From the IMG/VR virus record IMGVR_UViG_3300045988_112172: 64,000 nt of DNA; one strand, 5' to 3'. The DNA is from a virus. Within the stretch, counting starts at the first letter, position 1, and each line of letters starts with the position of its first letter. Under the pieces are notes generated by a model. The model was not told the origin of the DNA, ran no database searches, and saw only the letters and a program-made list of their open reading frames with translations. Below are positions 12,066 to 34,520 of the stretch, piece by piece. The position numbers and the translations under genes are program-made.

Positions 12066-12773
12066 ATGAAGATATTAAATTCGTTGAAAGATTCAAGTAT
12101 TTTTTTTAAACATGATGATGCTACGAGGATATTGGAACACATCGAGTCCGTGTTAAAAGCATCAGTGGACTACTACTATCCTAATCATTCTAAACCTGAA
12201 GCAGAACCAGGAGACATGGGAGAAGTTTCTGACGGATACCATACTTTCAATGAATTGTATCGGTACCGTATGTTGTATAATGCCGCCTTCTTTAATTTAT
12301 TAGCCAGAAACGGACAGGTTGAAGTTTGCAAATCAAGGAGACACAGCGACGGAGAAAGATGCTTCGGTTCTGATGACTGGTTTATTGTGATGGCAATGTT
12401 ACCCACTGGTCAGGTGTCTAATCACTATGAAAGCAAATACTGGGATTTGTTTGATGTTCCAGAAAGAGAAACCGCTTTCGAATATGATGGCCATACACCA
12501 AATGAAGCCGCAGACAGACTTGAACAGTATCTTTTTCGAAAGAAATCGGGTTTAACATTTGAAGAAGCTTTTAAATTTTTGAAAAATGGTAATAATATCA
12601 AAAGGCATGGGTGGAAAAATGAACATCTTGATGCTTTTAGAAAAAGTGGTGTTAGCTCAATTCATGTGGAAAAGTCATTGATCATAATTATAAATGAAGA
12701 AACACGGAGGCTGACATCGTGGAATCCAAGTATAGAAGATATATCGTCGAATGACTGGGAGGTTGTGAAATGA
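12066..12773 (+). CDS. hypothetical protein (235 aa); N-terminus may extend to 12002 through a frameshift in a T8 run
   Basis: Good ORF. An upstream 36-codon ORF (12002-12109) ends inside a tttttttt tract where the 12066 frame continues. Confidence 0.55.
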   Translation: MKILNSLKDSSIFFKHDDATRILEHIESVLKASVDYYYPNHSKPEAEPGDMGEVSDGYHTFNELYRYRMLYNAAFFNLLARNGQVEVCKSRRHSDGERCFGSDDWFIVMAMLPTGQVSNHYESKYWDLFDVPERETAFEYDGHTPNEAADRLEQYLFRKKSGLTFEEAFKFLKNGNNIKRHGWKNEHLDAFRKSGVSSIHVEKSLIIIINEETRRLTSWNPSIEDISSNDWEVVK

Positions 12774-14489: not shown

Positions 14490-15750
14490 TTATTTAACCA
14501 ATAAACCCACCATGCTTTAGAAGGTGGATGAATTGGTTTGATTAATTTTGAATCAAAATTACAGATAAAAAAAATGATTTCATACAAATACAACATCTAT
14601 CATTCCAAGAAAACGAAGTATCTTGACAAGATACTTCGCGAATGTTGTTTTGTATGGAATCATGCGTTATCTCTACAACGTAGGTATTACAAACTGTTTG
14701 GAAAATATATATCAATTGGTAAGATGAAGAAGCATTTTGCCAAAAGAATTAAAAGAAACTTGCTTCATTCTCAAACAACACAAGAGATACTTGAACGACT
14801 GGATGAATCTTACAATCGTTTCTTTAAAAGAAAATCAAAGAGACCTCCTAAGTTTAAAGGATCTGATTGCTTCAGCTCCTTTGTTTTTAAACAAGGAGGT
14901 TTTACTATAAATGGCAATATTCTCACAATAAACAAAGTAAAGAAACGTTTTAAGTTTTCATACAGTAGAGTCTATGAAGGTAATGTCAAACAAATTAGAA
15001 TAGTTAGAAAAACTTGCCATCGATATAGTTTGATTATAATTACAGATCATAATCATTCAAACTCTTATAGAAAGACACATAATGGTGCATCTATCGGATT
15101 GGATTTTGGGCTGAAAACTTATCTAACTAAAAGCGATGGTAGCAAAATCGATTCTCCATTATTCTTCAAAAAAATATCAAAACAAGATTAGAAAACTAAA
15201 CAAACGGCTTTCTAATGCAAAGAAAGGATCCAACAATAGAAGAAGGAGACTGTTTGAACTACAACAAACGTATCGTAAAATAAACGATCTTCGATCAGAT
15301 TTTCAATGGGGATTAGCACACCAGTTATGCAAACAGTATGATTATATTTTTATTGAAGATCTAAACATTGAAGGAATGAAACGTTTGTGGGGAAAGAAGG
15401 TTTCTGATCTTAGTCATTCTTCTTTTATTGATAAACTTACGTATGTTGCCTCAAAGTATGGAGTAACTGTACATAAGATTGACAAATGGTATCCTTCTTC
15501 CAAAACTTGTGAATGTGGCTGCATTAATAAAGGGCTGTCGTTACGCGACCGCACGTGGGTGTGCCCCTCGTGCGGCGCAATCAACGACCGTGATGTTCTT
15601 GCAGCCCGTAATATATTTCGGAAGGGCATTTCCGAATTGGAGAGTATGGGTAATTCCGATGGTAGTAATACCGAGGTTCCATACGTTTGTATCCAAGAAT
15701 CCCATAGCCTTTAGGCGTGGGAGTATGTCAAGATATGCTTGATTTTTAAC
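14490..15750 (+). mobile_element. IS200/IS605-family tnpB-only insertion element, copy 2, a different subfamily from copy 1
   Basis: TnpB ORF with a conserved 3' end and right-end region that recurs as a solo copy at 59.4 kb. It sits immediately upstream of the second giant gene. Boundaries are approximate. Confidence 0.65.
14538..15714 (+). pseudogene. tnpB: tnpB (IS605 OrfB family, with RuvC-II IFIEDLN and CxxC...CxxC zinc finger), frame-shifted in an A7 run near 15165-15171
   Basis: Part one ends in RuvC-I (IGLDFGLKTY). Part two carries the basic linker, IFIEDLN, CECGC...CPSCG and a RuvC-III NDRDVLAARNI motif. The two frames overlap at ttcaaaaaaatatc. Confidence 0.75.
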
Positions 15751-29245: not shown

Positions 29246-30265
29246 TCATCGTTTTATCTTTTTAGACGGATCCCAATCCGAAGAGAAAGGGCATTCGTTT
29301 TTGTTATGTAATCCAAAGTCACAATAATAACACAGTGCTGACGGGCAGGGTAGCTTGTTTTGCGAAACAGGCTGGCTTAGGGTGGCACGCCTCTTGCTAT
29401 ACCTGGTTCCTTCTGCTCCCTGGATGTATGCTTGAAATGCTTTTACACTATTATCTTCAAAATCATACATTTTAGACAAAGTGTCATTTAGCATCTCTAT
29501 AGATTTTGTTTTACGTTCCTCATCTACCTTAACCTTTTGGTACTGTCTGGTCCTGGTAAAGAAATAGATGTTCATATCTGGCAGAACTCCGCCATATCTT
29601 CTATAGATGTAAAATGAATATATAGGATGCTGTAAATTTGTTTCCAACTTCTTAGAGTCAAAAACCTTATTACCGGATTTCCAATCTATGACATAATGGT
29701 GAACTACGTTCTTGCTTTTTATAGCCAGATGAAGGTCTACCGATCCTACTATGTACACATGAGTATGAACGGTCCCATTTATATCAACAGGCTTAGGAAG
29801 ACGGTACGGCAGCACAAAATCTTCTTCGACTCCAACTATGGCGCCGTGTCTGATAAGTTTCTCGCAGGGATTAAGATCACTATCAGCTATCATAAACCTA
29901 TTGCCGTCTTTTTTGAACAGATCCACAATCCAAGCAAGAAGTTCCCCAGATTGCTTCATGGCCATCATCATATTTTCCGGTGATTGCCAAGGTATGTCCT
30001 CCTGGTAAGCATAGTAACTTATCGCTTCTCCAAGGTCTTTACCAGAAGGCTGTCTTCCGTTCTTAAAAAAGTATTCCAGTGTCTTATGGATAACCGTACC
30101 ATAAGACGTAGCTTCTTGTTTTTCCGTAGACCTTTTGCCCTCTACGTAAGTCTTATACCATTTCATTGGACAGGTAAGAAACGTATCTATCTGGGAATAA
30201 GATATGGCAAGACGTTTCACACCATTAAACTCCTTATATAGCAAATGCGTTTCCGGGACCATCAT
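29246..30265 (-). CDS. PD-(D/E)XK nuclease, Cas4/RecB-like, with a C-terminal Cys cluster (339 aa)
   Basis: VGSVDLH ... VIDWKSGN (motif II/III-like D ... D/ExK pattern) and a C-terminal CPSALCYYC ... C cluster, as seen in Cas4/AddB-type nucleases. Confidence 0.6.
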   Translation of the reverse strand: MMVPETHLLYKEFNGVKRLAISYSQIDTFLTCPMKWYKTYVEGKRSTEKQEATSYGTVIHKTLEYFFKNGRQPSGKDLGEAISYYAYQEDIPWQSPENMMMAMKQSGELLAWIVDLFKKDGNRFMIADSDLNPCEKLIRHGAIVGVEEDFVLPYRLPKPVDINGTVHTHVYIVGSVDLHLAIKSKNVVHHYVIDWKSGNKVFDSKKLETNLQHPIYSFYIYRRYGGVLPDMNIYFFTRTRQYQKVKVDEERKTKSIEMLNDTLSKMYDFEDNSVKAFQAYIQGAEGTRYSKRRATLSQPVSQNKLPCPSALCYYCDFGLHNKNECPFSSDWDPSKKIKR

Positions 30266-30609
30266 AAGTCATTGTCTTTAAATCCTTCCGGGTAATATAC
30301 GACATACTTCTTACCGTCTTCTGGTGTCATGGCAAACTGCATGTAGTTATTACGATTACGATGCTTGCCATCTAATCCTCGCTTCCAATACAGGATGCCG
30401 TCTATATCCACATAAGACCGTCCGCGTTCGGCTCTAACTACGTCCGTGTGTAGCAGATACCCGTCGGAAGACACAATCCATACTTTATCCCCTTTGTTTA
30501 AATAAGATATTCTTTTTCTTACAACAACCTTTTTCTTATTATCCAATACAAATTCCTCATCAGTCATACTCTTCATCCTCCTCTTCTTCTGTTTCAAAAT
30601 CAATTCCAT
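30262..30609 (-). CDS. hypothetical protein (115 aa)
   Basis: ORF with its stop overlapping the nuclease start. Confidence 0.55.
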   Translation of the reverse strand: MELILKQKKRRMKSMTDEEFVLDNKKKVVVRKRISYLNKGDKVWIVSSDGYLLHTDVVRAERGRSYVDIDGILYWKRGLDGKHRNRNNYMQFAMTPEDGKKYVVYYPEGFKDNDL

Positions 30610-30639: not shown

Positions 30640-31152
30640 TATTCGTATGTTTTAATACATCCCCTCGGAGACCTTTCGGTCTCCTTGGTAGATGTAAATC
30701 CCGTTAGGGATAAGTCAGGATTTCTCCTGTAAGTACCCATCGCCAATGTTATTTAAGGTTTTGAATAAGCAACACTGTTCCTGAATACCAGAACTGTTTA
30801 ATCACTTACCTTAGAGCTACAGACTTGGGCAAACATCCGTAGGTAACTATCTATTCTTAAATAACGTAGCCTTTGTTTCAAGGCTTAGGCTAATAACCCG
30901 ATCTCTTAAAGAGATGTATTAAACTTTTATAATAGAATTATATTGGTTTAATACTATTTGGGGTTATAACACTGATCATAATGATTGGTCAGTTCTTCTG
31001 GTTCTAAATCTTGTCCAAAATCCATGTTAAAAATATCGTAATTAGTAAAGCACTAAAAATCACTATTCCTGCTGGCATGAAATCTATAAATGCTGCTTTT
31101 GCTTCTTCAATTAGGCCCAAGTGTAACCTTGGGCCATTGTATTTATTTTTTG
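30640..31152 (+). ncRNA. candidate structured noncoding RNA (about 500 nt), antisense to the flanking gene block
   Basis: A 530-bp stretch with no ORF of 60 aa or more on either strand, inside an otherwise gap-free gene block. It is GC-richer than its surroundings. It has several perfect hairpins (GGAGACC-tttc-GGTCTCC, CAGGA-tttc-TCCTG, ATCTCTT-aa-AGAGAT, AGCCT ... AGGCT). It ends in a canonical plus-strand terminator (8-bp stem ggcccaag / cttgggcc at 31114-31135, followed by attgtatttattttttg). Confidence 0.4.
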
Positions 31153-32843
31153 TCATCTCCTTTTAATTTCTTTAAAGTATCTGCAATCGGAAGCTGATCA
31201 ATGACTCCCAATGCCGGAGCGACGGTCTTGACAACATTGTTAAGGAAATTACCGGTACTGTTCTGACCGCCGTCAAATACCGTGATATTTCCGAGATTAA
31301 TGTGCTCAAATGCTTTAACCTGTTCTCCAGCAATTTCTTTCCACTGATTAACCATCTTGTACTGGATGGCGATCTGAGGATTGGATTCTGCTGCTTCCAC
31401 CATAGCCTTAAATCCGTCGGCTTCTGCCATCAACGATTTTTTCTTACCTTCGGCTTCTGCCTCCAGCTTCATCTGAATAGCTTTTGCCTCCGCCTCAGCT
31501 TTTGCCAAATGTGCTGCTGCCTCTGCCTCAGCCCGGCGTTTGATCTTCTCTGCCTCAGCATCAGCTTGCAAGATAGCCTCTTCCTTCTGGGTTTCAGCCG
31601 GCACAATCTTTTCAGCCTTAAGCGCAGCCTGAACTTTCTTAGCCTTAGCTTCTTCCACTTCTTTATCAGCAAGCTCTTTTGCCGTTTTTACAGCCGCTTC
31701 CGATTTAACTTTTTCTTCTCCGGCCTTCTTTTCTGATTGAGCTTTGATAATCTGTAGTTCTGATACTGACACAGCAACCTCCTTCTGGGCATTGTTGTAT
31801 CCTATAGACGCATTTTTCTCAGCCTCAGCCTTCTTAATCTGAGCTTCAGAGTCTTGTATTGCTATAGCTGCTTCCTTGTCAGCTTCAGCCTTATTCTTTC
31901 CGACTTCTTCCATCCTTTCAGCCTCGGCTTTATTTACTTCAAGTTCTGCCTTAGATCTTACAATCGCCGATTCCTTGTCGGTTAAAGTTTTTGCGATAAC
32001 CGCAGCCCTGTCTCTATCTGCTTGAGCTACGCCGATCTGTTTCTCTTTATCGGTTAAAGCCAAGGCTATTTCTTTTTCTTTCTTCGTTTCAGCTACTATC
32101 GTTTCCTTTTCTTTTTCAGTACAAGCAATTTGAATCTCTTGTTCTTTTTTGGTATTAGCCACAGCCGTTTCTTTCTCCTTCTGCTGTACAGCAATCTTAA
32201 TAGCACCCAGCTTCTCCTGCTCTTCGATATTAGCTTGTGCTTCGTTCAGAGCCCTACTTTCAGCCTCCTTACCAAGGTTCATAATATAACCTGCTTCGTC
32301 TCTGATGTCACTGATGTTGATGTTCAGGAGGTAAAGACCTAACTTGTTAAGCTCGTTATCAATGTTCTTTCTTGCCTTATCCAAAAACTCATCCCTGTCA
32401 GAATTAAGTTTTTCGATTGTCATTTCAGCAATAATCAAACGCATCTGACCGTAAACGATGTCCGTAATAAGATTTTCAGTAGATTCGGTATCCATCCCCA
32501 AAAGTCTTTCTGCCGCATTTTGCATGATTTCGGGATTTGTACTGATAGCTACTGTAATGGTCGTAGGTACATCTACTCTAATATTCTGAGATGACAAAGC
32601 ACCGGTAAGCTTGCAATCTATTTGCATAGGCTCCATTGACAAAACATCATAGCTTTGAATAATAGGCAAGACGAATGCCGCTCCACCATGATATAATTTC
32701 GCCGACTTCTTTTCCCCACCTGTCTTACCGTAAACGACCAAGACCTGATTAGGCTTACATCTACGATACCTTGATAAGACTCCGATGATTGTCAAAATAA
32801 TCACTACAGCTAAGATAGCTGACACGTACATGATTGTTGTCAT
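31143..32843 (-). CDS. flotillin-like SPFH/band-7 domain protein (566 aa)
   Basis: N-terminal transmembrane helix, then an SPFH-like domain, then a long Ala/Glu/Lys-rich coiled-coil (EAEAEKIKRRAEAEAAAHLAKAEAEAKAIQ) characteristic of flotillin (FloT/YqiK type). Confidence 0.75.
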   Translation of the reverse strand: MTTIMYVSAILAVVIILTIIGVLSRYRRCKPNQVLVVYGKTGGEKKSAKLYHGGAAFVLPIIQSYDVLSMEPMQIDCKLTGALSSQNIRVDVPTTITVAISTNPEIMQNAAERLLGMDTESTENLITDIVYGQMRLIIAEMTIEKLNSDRDEFLDKARKNIDNELNKLGLYLLNINISDIRDEAGYIMNLGKEAESRALNEAQANIEEQEKLGAIKIAVQQKEKETAVANTKKEQEIQIACTEKEKETIVAETKKEKEIALALTDKEKQIGVAQADRDRAAVIAKTLTDKESAIVRSKAELEVNKAEAERMEEVGKNKAEADKEAAIAIQDSEAQIKKAEAEKNASIGYNNAQKEVAVSVSELQIIKAQSEKKAGEEKVKSEAAVKTAKELADKEVEEAKAKKVQAALKAEKIVPAETQKEEAILQADAEAEKIKRRAEAEAAAHLAKAEAEAKAIQMKLEAEAEGKKKSLMAEADGFKAMVEAAESNPQIAIQYKMVNQWKEIAGEQVKAFEHINLGNITVFDGGQNSTGNFLNNVVKTVAPALGVIDQLPIADTLKKLKGDDKK

Positions 32844-32874: not shown

Positions 32875-33369
32875 TTAGATACTTAATTCTCCTTCTTCAT
32901 ATTTTATATTCGCCTTGTCGCCGTTTTTGTAGGTTTTTCCAGACAAGCATCTTACTCTCATTTGCTCTTGTCTTCCATTTTTCGAAATATTTACCATATA
33001 ATGATTCTTCCCTGATCTAAATACTATCTCCACTTCTCTTCCGTTTAAATCTTCCGGACATTCGTACACCATTTCTTGCTTTAACTTAAGAAGTAACTTA
33101 TATACGTAAAACAAAATGATAAAGAAAAACGACCCTATCACAACCCCTACTAAATGGGAACCCGAAAAGTACGTGGCCCAGCTATATCCAAGAATAAAAT
33201 GCGTTATACCCTTGAATGATATGATGTCCGACAAAGACATGCTTAAATCAGAAGCACTGTCAATGTCAATATCCGTATCCAGATCAGATCCTAATATCGA
33301 CAACAAAAACTGTATAACAAAAGCAAATGACGCTATTAAAGCCATGCATAAAATTATATCACTTCCCAT
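32875..33369 (-). CDS. NfeD/YqiJ-like membrane protein (164 aa), partner of flotillin
   Basis: Two or three N-terminal transmembrane helices plus a C-terminal OB-fold-like beta segment (GREVEIVFRSGKNHYMVNISKNGRQEQMRVR). It lies immediately upstream of the flotillin gene, as in bacterial yqiJK/floA operons. Confidence 0.55.
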   Translation of the reverse strand: MGSDIILCMALIASFAFVIQFLLSILGSDLDTDIDIDSASDLSMSLSDIISFKGITHFILGYSWATYFSGSHLVGVVIGSFFFIILFYVYKLLLKLKQEMVYECPEDLNGREVEIVFRSGKNHYMVNISKNGRQEQMRVRCLSGKTYKNGDKANIKYEEGELSI

Positions 33370-33610
33370 ATCCTTTTGTTATTATTTTGTAAACAAGATC
33401 AGTCATATCTTTGATGGATTCTGTATCATAATCAATAATAACGATATTGAATTTTTGTTCCACCATCACATCAAGCTCAATTCGATCAATAGAATCTAAT
33501 CCAAGTTCTTCAAACGACACATCTTCTTCATGAACTATATCTATTTCCGAATGAAGAAACTGAGTAATAATTATATCCTCTATTATCTTTCTAATTCTTA
33601 CTTTTTCCAT
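33359..33610 (-). CDS. acyl carrier protein-like small acidic protein (83 aa)
   Basis: EELGLDSIDRIELDVMVEQKF matches the ACP phosphopantetheine-attachment motif (DSL-type Ser followed by an acidic helix). Small, acidic and single-domain. Confidence 0.6.
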   Translation of the reverse strand: MEKVRIRKIIEDIIITQFLHSEIDIVHEEDVSFEELGLDSIDRIELDVMVEQKFNIVIIDYDTESIKDMTDLVYKIITKGYGK

Positions 33611-34311
33611 TGCTTTCTAATTTTGTTAAATAAATACGTTTTTATATTTTTCAATCGCTCTTTGTCTGTTTCTGAGCTTCCGGTAAACAAATAATCCGGA
33701 TTTCCTTTAGCCGGCGGCGTGGGCAATTTAGATACAGCAAACAACCAATCCATTTCCTTATTCTTCTTAGGCTCCAAATAAGGCTCGGTAGCGATCTTAA
33801 ATTTTTCAGCTATTAAGTCAAAGAGTTTTGAGTTTTTGAGGTTCATATGAACCGAGAAAGCCTGAGAAGGCGGTTTCCATATGAAGTTACATAAACTCAT
33901 TGTGTAATCTCCTGACTCTGCTATATAAGATTCTGTTACTTGAAGTATGACCTCTTTCTTAAATGAAGTATTACCCATAAACCAACACAATCTGGATTCC
34001 GCTTCTTTTCTGCTGACACCTATGTCTTTTGAATATGATTCGTACATTCCTATCATAATCTTCAACGTCTCCAGAACCTCGTCCGTCATTTCCGGTGTCT
34101 CTATATAATTCACAAAAGACGTTCCTTTGTTGGTTAATCTCATCACGCCTGATTTTAATTTCTCAACCAGACCAAGCTCTATATATCTCCCAGCATCTTC
34201 TTCCGGCATGGCTTCGATCATAACCGTGTCCTTCTGTCTTATGGCAAGAAGATTGGCAAGATCATTAGGCGTCATGTCTGATGCTGCAAGTTGTCTGAAA
34301 TTGATGTACAT
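33598..34311 (-). CDS. hypothetical protein (237 aa)
   Basis: ORF at the head of the ACP-NfeD-flotillin gene string. Confidence 0.55.
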   Translation of the reverse strand: MYINFRQLAASDMTPNDLANLLAIRQKDTVMIEAMPEEDAGRYIELGLVEKLKSGVMRLTNKGTSFVNYIETPEMTDEVLETLKIMIGMYESYSKDIGVSRKEAESRLCWFMGNTSFKKEVILQVTESYIAESGDYTMSLCNFIWKPPSQAFSVHMNLKNSKLFDLIAEKFKIATEPYLEPKKNKEMDWLFAVSKLPTPPAKGNPDYLFTGSSETDKERLKNIKTYLFNKIRKQWKK

Positions 34312-34313
34312 GC

Positions 34314-34520
34314 CTAATCAGCTTTAATAAAAATAACATCCCTATTATCCTCTCTCTCTGCGTGATTACACGGACCTGCAATCACATCCACTGCCCCGCG
34401 TGTAAAGTAATTAAATATACATCCTTCACATCCTGCATCTGGTGCCATTGGTTCCACACATTTTAATCTCACAAGTCCGGCATCAAATACTTCTCCTACT
34501 TTAAATTCCTTCTTTTCCAT
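34314..34520 (-). CDS. small Cys-rich protein (68 aa)
   Basis: CVEP ... CEGC ... C cluster. Confidence 0.4.
   Translation of the reverse strand: MEKKEFKVGEVFDAGLVRLKCVEPMAPDAGCEGCIFNYFTRGAVDVIAGPCNHAEREDNRDVIFIKAD

Follow-up and report, generated by a model that had tools for sequence, protein, structure and literature searches.

Results

A divergent acyl carrier protein gene in a human-gut phage

The DNA analyzed here is the 64,000-nucleotide (nt) stretch of IMG/VR virus record IMGVR_UViG_3300045988_112172, which as a whole is referred to below as the window. Its minus strand contains a small open reading frame (ORF; the coordinates of the features are given in Table 1) whose translation, MEKVRIRKIIEDIIITQFLHSEIDIVHEEDVSFEELGLDSIDRIELDVMVEQKFNIVIIDYDTESIKDMTDLVYKIITKGYGK, is an acidic protein of 83 amino acids (aa) that resembles acyl carrier proteins (ACPs). 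The original prediction had described it as an ACP-like phage protein with a near-textbook serine-attachment helix. An 8-kb query around the gene matched the human-gut phage csAssE-Sib (OR575929.1; 151 kb) with 96.2% identity over 95%, and since this genome encodes terminase, portal and capsid genes, the phage origin of the DNA is confirmed.

In the csAssE-Sib record the orthologue (WOZ57347.1) is already named “acyl carrier protein” and its neighbours “transmembrane protein” and “flotillin family protein”. IMG likewise labels orthologues “acyl carrier protein”, and NCBI records of metagenome-assembled genomes use “DUF1493”, a label that was not reproduced by our Pfam scan, in which the 83-aa protein gave no DUF1493 match at E ≤ 1. 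The gene is therefore not new as an entity, because public annotation already contains it. What is added here is comparative evidence that losing the attachment serine is tolerated in the genomic slot that the gene occupies and has become fixed there in some lineages. The crAss-like Bacteroidales phage in which it is an accessory gene is very common in the human gut: in metagenomes, the clade of the gene comprises 959 protein clusters and 186 IMG/VR loci, and a single variant can be present on as many as 1000 or more contigs. A tblastn search with the ACP of 50,697 deposited phage genomes identified csAssE-Sib as the sole carrier, and among 1.84 billion representatives the best matches beyond its own family, which were generic ACPs and tandem-ACP megasynthases, were 31–46% identical. 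A literature search found no paper on csAssE-Sib.

The 83-aa protein contains 20 Asp plus Glu and 10 Lys plus Arg residues, giving a net charge of −10 and a pI of 4.44. The Pfam profile PP-binding (PF00550), whose use had been proposed together with the original prediction, matched it above threshold (26.7 bits against a gathering score of 20.8; E 6.7e-6), and at E ≤ 1 the only other Pfam match was ACP_SdgA_C. Residues 9–74 matched PHROG 5934, “acyl carrier protein”, over profile positions 18–82 of 93 (E 2.6e-8, 34.9 bits; PHROGs have no curated cutoff). A phmmer search of PDB sequences returned 116 distinct sequences at E ≤ 1; all 60 of those listed are named ACPs or ACP subunits, and the alignments cover residues 3–78. 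Sixteen NCBIfam models, almost all of them ACP models, also matched, the best one covering residues 1–77, with scores of 18–31 bits against curated cutoffs of 66–106 (30.9 against 71 for the best model, and 28.4 against 70.45 for TIGR00517). Because these scores are far below the equivalog cutoffs, the protein is classed here as a divergent member of the ACP superfamily and not as an orthologue of AcpP.

The AlphaFold2 model, built from an alignment of 47 sequences (predicted local distance difference test score, pLDDT, 77.7), contains helices at residues 2–19, 40–54, 60–65 and 69–78, which correspond to the four helices of an ACP with a long loop between helices I and II. When this model was compared with the PDB by Foldseek, the best 50 matches were all ACPs, with template-modelling (TM) scores of 0.64–0.84 and root-mean-square deviations of 1.4–4.3 Å. 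The ACP fold thus extends over the whole domain, and the concern that the similarity might be confined to the short Asp-Ser motif, without the four-helix fold, can be set aside. The segment highlighted originally, LGLDSIDRIELDVMVEQKF, corresponds to residues 36–54. In the model, helix II begins with the serine of this segment, Ser40, which belongs to a D39-S40-I41-D42 motif and corresponds in the alignment to the serine of the DSL motif in other ACPs. Residues D39, D42, E45, E51 and F54 are nearly invariant across the ACP alignment; within the form of the protein found in the window, which we call allele A, the polymorphic positions of helix II are 41, 43, 44, 47 and 48.

The ACP-like gene opens an accessory hotspot in the replication module

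The start of the ACP gene overlaps by 13 nt the stop of the upstream gene h237, and the two genes are translationally coupled. We used homologues of h237, from 99% down to 36% identical, to trace the context of the slot into more distant phages. The conserved backbone has the order primase, DUF3268, DnaB, h200, h237, [slot], h115 family, [slot], PD-(D/E)XK exonuclease, helicase. When loci were anchored on h237, an ACP-like ORF came after it in every one of the 79 that reach far enough. The content of the slot differs between lineages. In L173, whose h237 is 77% identical, it holds a canonical ACP (LELDSLDEVEF) followed by transmembrane and flotillin genes, and in L174 and L178 (h237 58–60% identical) an ACP-like gene followed by a C5 DNA methylase gene. 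In L177 and L180 only small non-ACP genes lie between h237 and the exonuclease gene, and in L179 these two are directly adjacent. Within the same phage species as the window, a form that we call allele B replaces the ACP gene together with the entire cassette downstream of it. Gene order thus places the ACP-like gene at the head of an accessory hotspot within the replication module and shows that it is not a component of the membrane module.

The h237 protein gave no match in Pfam, PHROGs or NCBIfam, nor by sequence or profile search of the PDB; the one informative search was a fold search, which recognised a winged helix in its N-terminal domain. For the helical C-terminal domain of about 145 aa no convincing match to a solved structure was obtained. 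The protein is 98–100% conserved within the species, and its position after DnaB is one at which a replication initiator or loader-type protein may be encoded.

Two slots, L174 (4675–7946) and L178 (3675–6711), contain a longer series of genes, namely an ACP-like gene of the Asp form described below, the C5 DNA methylase gene, an h115-family gene, a 53-aa ORF, two radical-SAM genes and the exonuclease gene. Together these genes may form a DNA-modification cassette.

Table 1. Features of the ACP-like slot and of its surroundings in the window
Feature	Position	Strand	Basis
ACP-fold gene, 83 aa; allele A of the ACP-like slot	33359..33610	−	ORF with ATG start; Pfam, PHROG, PDB, AlphaFold2, Foldseek
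Codon TCT of Ser40, predicted 4'-phosphopantetheine attachment residue in the D39-S40-I41-D42 motif	33491..33493	−	Sequence, model, ACP alignment
Helix II (residues 40–54), acidic recognition helix	33449..33493	−	Model, alignment, polymorphism tables
TM164, 164-aa membrane protein; first gene of the captured host cassette	32875..33369	−	ORF; Bacteroidales homologues
Flotillin, 566 aa (SPFH/Band 7 and Flot domains); host-derived, optional	31143..32843	−	Pfam, NCBIfam, YqiK, Bacteroidales matches
50-aa ORF with hydrophobic C-terminal stretch; lost with flotillin in most deletion variants	31004..31156	−	
Terminator-like hairpin; the sole such minus-strand site from the h237 start to the cassette end	30868..30885	−	Consensus scan
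h237, 237 aa; N-terminal MarR-like winged-helix domain and helical C-terminal domain	33598..34311	−	
h115, conserved backbone gene closing the variable slot	30262..30609	−	Homologues in L166, L174, L177 and L175, 31–85% identity
PD-(D/E)XK exonuclease, backbone gene flanking the slot	29246..30265	−	Pfam PDDEXK_1

Sister forms of the protein lack the attachment serine

Residue 40 is serine in 117 of the 119 protein clusters of allele A and proline in the other two, one of which was found on at least 24 contigs from different samples. A Ser-to-Tyr replacement at this position is present in locus L010, where the downstream cassette is intact. Allele B comprises 23 protein clusters on about 220 contigs, some of them in genomes of about 150 kb, and has the motif LAFD[Y/F]F(D/E/K)KIEL, with Tyr or Phe at the serine site. 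Serine is missing altogether from the allele-B sequence that was checked (P0220). The ORFs of allele B are intact, encode 84–87 aa and have diverged to 76% identity among themselves; one member scores above the PP-binding threshold of Pfam (24.2 bits). Across the deeper split within allele B, the ratio of nonsynonymous to synonymous polymorphism (pN/pS) is 0.13, which indicates purifying selection. In allele C, present in L174 and L178, the sequence is GFDDLD, with Asp at the attachment position. The two allele-C proteins are 46.5% identical and give PP-binding scores of 33.9–35.4 bits, above the score of the window protein itself. The pN/pS of 0.79 between their genes cannot be interpreted, since it was calculated with synonymous changes close to saturation and from an alignment taken to contain no gaps.

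All these forms are acidic, with net charges between −10 and −15, and for the most part they retain the docking pattern Asp-x-x-Asp...Glu...Glu-x-x-Phe. Because the sister forms keep the fold and the acidic helix and have the serine replaced, the function of the slot appears to be independent of the prosthetic group, and the attachment serine itself is, on this comparison, dispensable to it. The mutual identity of the forms A, L173, B and C is 31–38%, so they are as distant from one another as from unrelated ACPs, and at this distance rapid divergence in situ and repeated replacement look alike.

The gene evolves rapidly and is retained

In genomes that share 95–100% identity in the flanking proteins, the ACP is only 78–94% identical. 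The pN/pS of the ACP gene is 0.41, against 0.008–0.083 for the genes of DnaB, h200, h237, TM164, flotillin, h115 and the exonuclease, meaning that the ACP evolves 5–50 times faster than its neighbours. Within the gene, the ratio of nonsynonymous to synonymous variants is 0.25 for helix I, 0.92 for helix II and 0.87 for loop 2 plus helix III, based on the small numbers of 47 nonsynonymous and 17 synonymous variants. The same pattern is seen at a larger distance: when L173 is compared with the window, flotillin is 82%, h237 77% and the transmembrane protein 64% identical, and the ACP only 36%.

The ACP gene is intact in 100 of the 103 distinct allele-A loci, whether or not flotillin is present. 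The remaining three have a frameshift or a stop, which in the cases inspected lies at a run of As and may be an assembly error. Single-nt frameshifts at this run, GAACAAAAATTC (region 33449–33460 of the window, about codons 51–53 of the ACP gene), were found in L135, L141 and L147, that is, in 3 of the 79 h237-anchored loci; they may be either homopolymer assembly errors or real inactivating or phase-variable mutations.

A second small gene of the module also evolves fast. It is a 68-aa Cys-rich ORF located between h200 and h237 (34314–34520, minus strand) with a pN/pS of 0.29; its allele classes are about 58–65%, 80% and 90–96% identical to the window copy, and the flanking genes are 98–100% identical.

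The adjacent membrane cassette is separable from the ACP gene

The start of TM164 overlaps the stop of the ACP gene by 11 nt, and TM164 is followed by a flotillin gene. The flotillin matches Band_7 (7.6e-26) and Flot (2.1e-9) of Pfam and FloT of NCBIfam (5.1e-42), and aligns end to end with YqiK of Escherichia coli (24% identity, E 1e-20). Flotillins encoded on the chromosomes of Bacteroides, Parabacteroides, Phocaeicola and Prevotella share 62–67% identity with it along the entire protein. In all 80 Bacteroidales flotillin loci inspected (L182–L261), a TM164 homologue of about 165 aa lies directly upstream (39–41% identity, E about 1e-34 to 1e-36), and no ACP was found near the pair in these 80 loci (best tblastn E > 2). 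Given the flotillin identity and the presence of the TM164 homologue in every one of these loci, TM164 and flotillin constitute a two-gene host operon that the phage acquired from Bacteroidales, and this copy points to a Bacteroidales host.

Operons of the yqiJ-yqiK type in E. coli, which encode an NfeD-like membrane protein and a flotillin, are comparable in layout: in both cases a flotillin gene for about 550 aa is directly preceded by the gene of a small membrane protein that is polytopic, has a loop rich in Asp and ends in a beta-rich domain. TM164 belongs to no Pfam family, and neither the phage protein nor its bacterial homologues match the YqiJ_N, YqiJ_OB or NfeD profiles. Comparison of TM164 with NfeD/YqiJ gave a BLASTP E value of 0.22 and hhalign probabilities of 1.3–5.7% over the last 25–26 residues, and a profile search of the PDB revealed no link to NfeD or YqiJ; the likeness of TM164 to YqiJ/NfeD is thus one of position and architecture only.

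Of the 103 allele-A loci, 74 have a complete flotillin gene, 26 have none and 3 have part of it (flotillin-less or partial examples are L009, L011, L015, L016, L028, L085 and L086). All 26 flotillin-less loci keep an intact ACP gene, and 25 of them keep Ser40. We also found in-frame deletion fusions of the ACP to the C-terminus of TM164 (P0121, 124 aa) and to that of flotillin (P0123, 144 aa). The allele-B and allele-C loci that were examined all lack the cassette and have an ACP-like gene. The proposal that the ACP is tied to the adjacent membrane module is therefore not borne out: the host operon is free of ACP genes, and the cassette is deleted in about a quarter of the allele-A loci and absent with alleles B and C. 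Judged by gene content, these loci show the ACP to be functionally independent of the TM164-flotillin cassette.

The S40P genomes had hinted that Ser40 and flotillin might degenerate jointly. This idea was rejected on account of the flotillin-less loci that keep the serine, and loss of Ser40 is seen on both flotillin-bearing and flotillin-less backgrounds. An ACP sub-allele resembling P0122 is enriched in flotillin-less genomes.

The phage encodes no recognisable partner enzymes

The original prediction had noted the lack of phosphopantetheinyl transferase (PPTase), fatty-acid and polyketide synthesis genes nearby, and this observation can now be extended to the genome. No PPTase, ketosynthase, acyltransferase, adenylating enzyme or other lipid or polyketide family was detected by Pfam (E ≤ 0.01) among the 101 proteins of the window. 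To look for a PPTase elsewhere in the genome, the remainder of the 96%-identical genome was used, and its 57 additional proteins yielded neither a PPTase nor any of the other families at the same threshold; a single “Lit” match (E 0.0096) was the marginal exception in these scans. The deposited annotation of csAssE-Sib lists no PPTase, fatty-acid or polyketide enzyme either. In the absence of partner enzymes from the phage, modification and loading of the ACP would fall to the host. The PADLOC defence models gave no meaningful match for the ACP or its neighbours.

We considered h237 as a PPTase of the Sfp type, which has a similar length, and rejected it, because it matches no PPTase profile and has a winged-helix fold.

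AcpS-type transferases recognise acidic residues of ACP. As the window allele keeps the Asp-Ser-x-Asp motif and its acidic residues, phosphopantetheinylation by the host is plausible, and this allele may well be modified in this way.

Other features of the window

On the plus strand, positions 12066–12773 encode a 235-aa protein with a WDGH domain (E 1.2e-36), followed at the C-terminus by a Thoeris anti-defence 2-like (Tad2-like) domain (E 6.6e-12); the csAssE-Sib genome encodes another Tad2-like protein elsewhere. A gene of the TnpB/IS605 OrfB type is located at 14538–15714, also on the plus strand. It is split into two overlapping ORFs, probably by a frameshift, with HTH_OrfB_IS605 in the first ORF and OrfB_IS605 plus a Cas12f1-like TNB domain in the second. 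Since intact TnpB copies are present at other positions in the relatives L169 and L177, these elements are mobile within the phage group.

Discussion

Stand-alone ACPs have been found in other phages, among them those of PHROG 5934, ORF32 of Erythrobacter phage vB_EliS-R6L and the duplicated ACPs of flavobacterial jumbophages. They share with the window protein the small acidic ACP fold and the lack of a fatty-acid or polyketide pathway alongside. The window clade differs from them in being isolated, in its location within a replication module after a winged-helix gene, and in having serine-less sisters. The function of phage-encoded ACPs has been described as unclear (PMC5463345), and phage ACPs were noted within a “host-interface island” (PMC13573597). 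Our literature searches found no experimental proof of the function of a phage-encoded ACP and no paper on a phage ACP in connection with a PPTase and auxiliary metabolic genes. A limited search likewise found no paper on such a gene location or on serine-less sister forms among phage ACPs.

Compared with housekeeping AcpP (TIGR00517, PRK00982), the window protein has the same four-helix fold, the D-S-x-D motif at the start of helix II and an acidic helix II, and its structural matches include ACPs in complex with AcpS, FabF, FabH, FabZ, FabI and LpxA-type partners (TM scores 0.69–0.86). However, its gene is optional and lacks a fab context, and its variation is greatest in helix II, the region that is best conserved in AcpP. 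That an ACP scaffold can serve purely as a protein-binding module without a prosthetic group is illustrated by the mitoribosomal protein mL50 (Pfam Ribosomal_L50). The L173 and allele-C forms show weak matches to this family (E 0.002–0.025, below threshold), which probably reflect the shared fold only; unlike mL50, the phage gene has no ribosomal context, and the window allele retains its serine.

Because the fold and the acidic face of helix II persist and the serine does not, we tentatively propose, as the likeliest of the readings considered, that the activity for which the slot is selected is docking, through this acidic face, onto a protein that normally binds ACP, with no need for the prosthetic group. 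The partner would be an enzyme or regulator of the host that uses ACP, or possibly the winged-helix protein h237 of the phage itself. The ACP-like protein would then act as an ACP mimic, a decoy or an adaptor in host takeover rather than as the obligatory acyl carrier of a phage pathway. Besides the serine-less forms, this proposal draws on the fold and motif, the lack of phage partner enzymes, the nearly invariant acidic residues, the rapid evolution and the retention of the gene, and on the precedent of FabT given below. Repurposing as a protein-binding adaptor was one of the options of the original prediction; the serine-less sister alleles and the fast evolution of helix II agree with it, although it is unproven and the window allele keeps its serine. 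Several observations weigh against the docking proposal. The majority allele, with serine in 117 of 119 clusters, and the L173 form both keep the canonical serine context and could therefore be carriers, and these two serine-bearing forms are precisely those beside the transmembrane and flotillin genes, a comparison that involves four lineages only. A high pN/pS and a variable helix II would also be expected from relaxed constraint, and the variant counts are small. The forms A, B, C and L173 may be one diverging lineage or separate captures, perhaps with different functions. Moreover, the slot is empty or occupied by non-ACP genes in L175, L176, L177, L179 and L180, so the function is a dispensable one.

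The most serious competitor of the docking proposal is a genuine auxiliary carrier, which we consider somewhat less likely than docking. The host AcpS would convert it to holo-ACP and the host type II fatty-acid synthesis system or acyltransferases would load it, thereby supplementing or redirecting lipid synthesis, possibly together with TM164 and flotillin. The canonical D-S-x-D motif opening helix II, the conserved acidic residues of this helix and the almost universal Ser40 of allele A are what a carrier should have, PHROG 5934 is filed under auxiliary metabolic and host-takeover genes, and the adjacency of both serine-bearing forms to the membrane cassette, together with the 11-nt overlap of the ACP gene with TM164, would fit a joint function. 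Yet the phage encodes no partner enzyme, and the flotillin cassette comes from an ACP-free host operon and was lost in 26 of 103 loci without decay of the ACP gene. Forms that lack the serine occupy the same slot in the same species and in relatives, helix II, which in a carrier ACP is usually under the tightest constraint, varies more here than any other part, and all scores against the AcpP models of NCBIfam are far below the cutoffs. A different role for an ACP is known from the Firmicutes, in which FabT binds DNA only with acyl-ACP bound, a precedent for an ACP as ligand of a winged-helix regulator (PMC6509188). By analogy, the ACP-like protein could be a ligand or partner of h237 that modulates its DNA binding and so couples phage replication or transcription to the state of the host. 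We regard this as improbable. The neighbour of the ACP gene does contain a MarR-type winged helix, but the match is generic to the MarR family without specific homology to FabT, and h237 is encoded among replication genes and carries an additional helical domain. FabT requires the acyl-4'-phosphopantetheine arm, which alleles B and C cannot carry. In addition, h237 homologues in L176, L177, L179 and L180 have no ACP gene after them, and the near invariance of h237 within the species, beside an ACP with wide variation, is not what one would expect of two proteins that must co-evolve as a pair.

Two further explanations receive even less credence from us. An acidic DNA mimic or anti-defence protein built on the ACP scaffold, which would inhibit a DNA-binding defence or repair protein of the host, would account for the strong acidity of all forms; a DNA mimic was also among the options of the original prediction. 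The variability of the accessory slot, its rapid turnover and the replacement of one allele by another are features typically seen at counter-defence loci. The genome has other genes of the counter-defence type, one with a Tad2-like domain, and in allele-C genomes the next gene encodes a DNA methylase. Acidity, however, is general to ACPs and does not discriminate, there was no PADLOC match and no likeness to known mimics in the Pfam, PDB and Foldseek searches, and the conserved residues are the classical docking residues of ACPs and not an array resembling a phosphate backbone; such a mimic is therefore highly improbable. Least probable is that the gene is a decaying remnant of a captured ACP gene without current function. 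The raised pN/pS, the occasional loss of the serine, the frameshifts or internal stops in three loci, the fusions P0121 and P0123, and the absence of the gene from several related lineages are all compatible with decay. Retention of the gene, which is intact in 100 of 103 loci and present in 79 of 79 anchored loci, and a pN/pS well below 1, falling to 0.13 across the deeper split of allele B, make this very unlikely; the fold-defining and acidic residues are kept across forms that share 31–38% identity, and both allele-C proteins score above the Pfam threshold.

The docking proposal can be developed into a more specific scenario, which at present we hold to be doubtful. The genes after h237 may encode viral “apo-ACP mimics” in which the serine was lost at least twice, and probably more often (to Tyr/Phe, Asp and Pro), and the acidic docking helix was kept. 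These proteins would titrate an ACP-binding protein of the host, such as an enzyme of lipid synthesis, AcpS or an ACP-dependent regulator, or would bind h237 as a ligand, and the variable surface of helix II would reflect an arms race with host partners. Overproduction of apo-ACP is reportedly toxic in E. coli, where Keating, Carey and Cronan are said to have described, in J Biol Chem in 1995, an inhibition of glycerol-3-phosphate acyltransferase. Our literature search on apo-ACP toxicity in a phage context found nothing relevant.

Phage ACPs are repeatedly annotated as “auxiliary metabolic genes”. If docking is indeed the selected activity, the reading of phage ACPs as carriers that boost lipid synthesis would need revision, at least for this family, and the Ser, Tyr, Asp and Pro forms would constitute a simple test set with which to find the partner. 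If it is not, the protein would be an ordinary host-dependent auxiliary ACP. The phage that carries the gene is among the most frequently assembled phages of the human gut, which means that its natural variation can be used as an experiment. Should the apo-ACP mimic scenario hold true, these proteins would be the first effectors to be described in which a virus uses the ACP scaffold independently of the prosthetic group.

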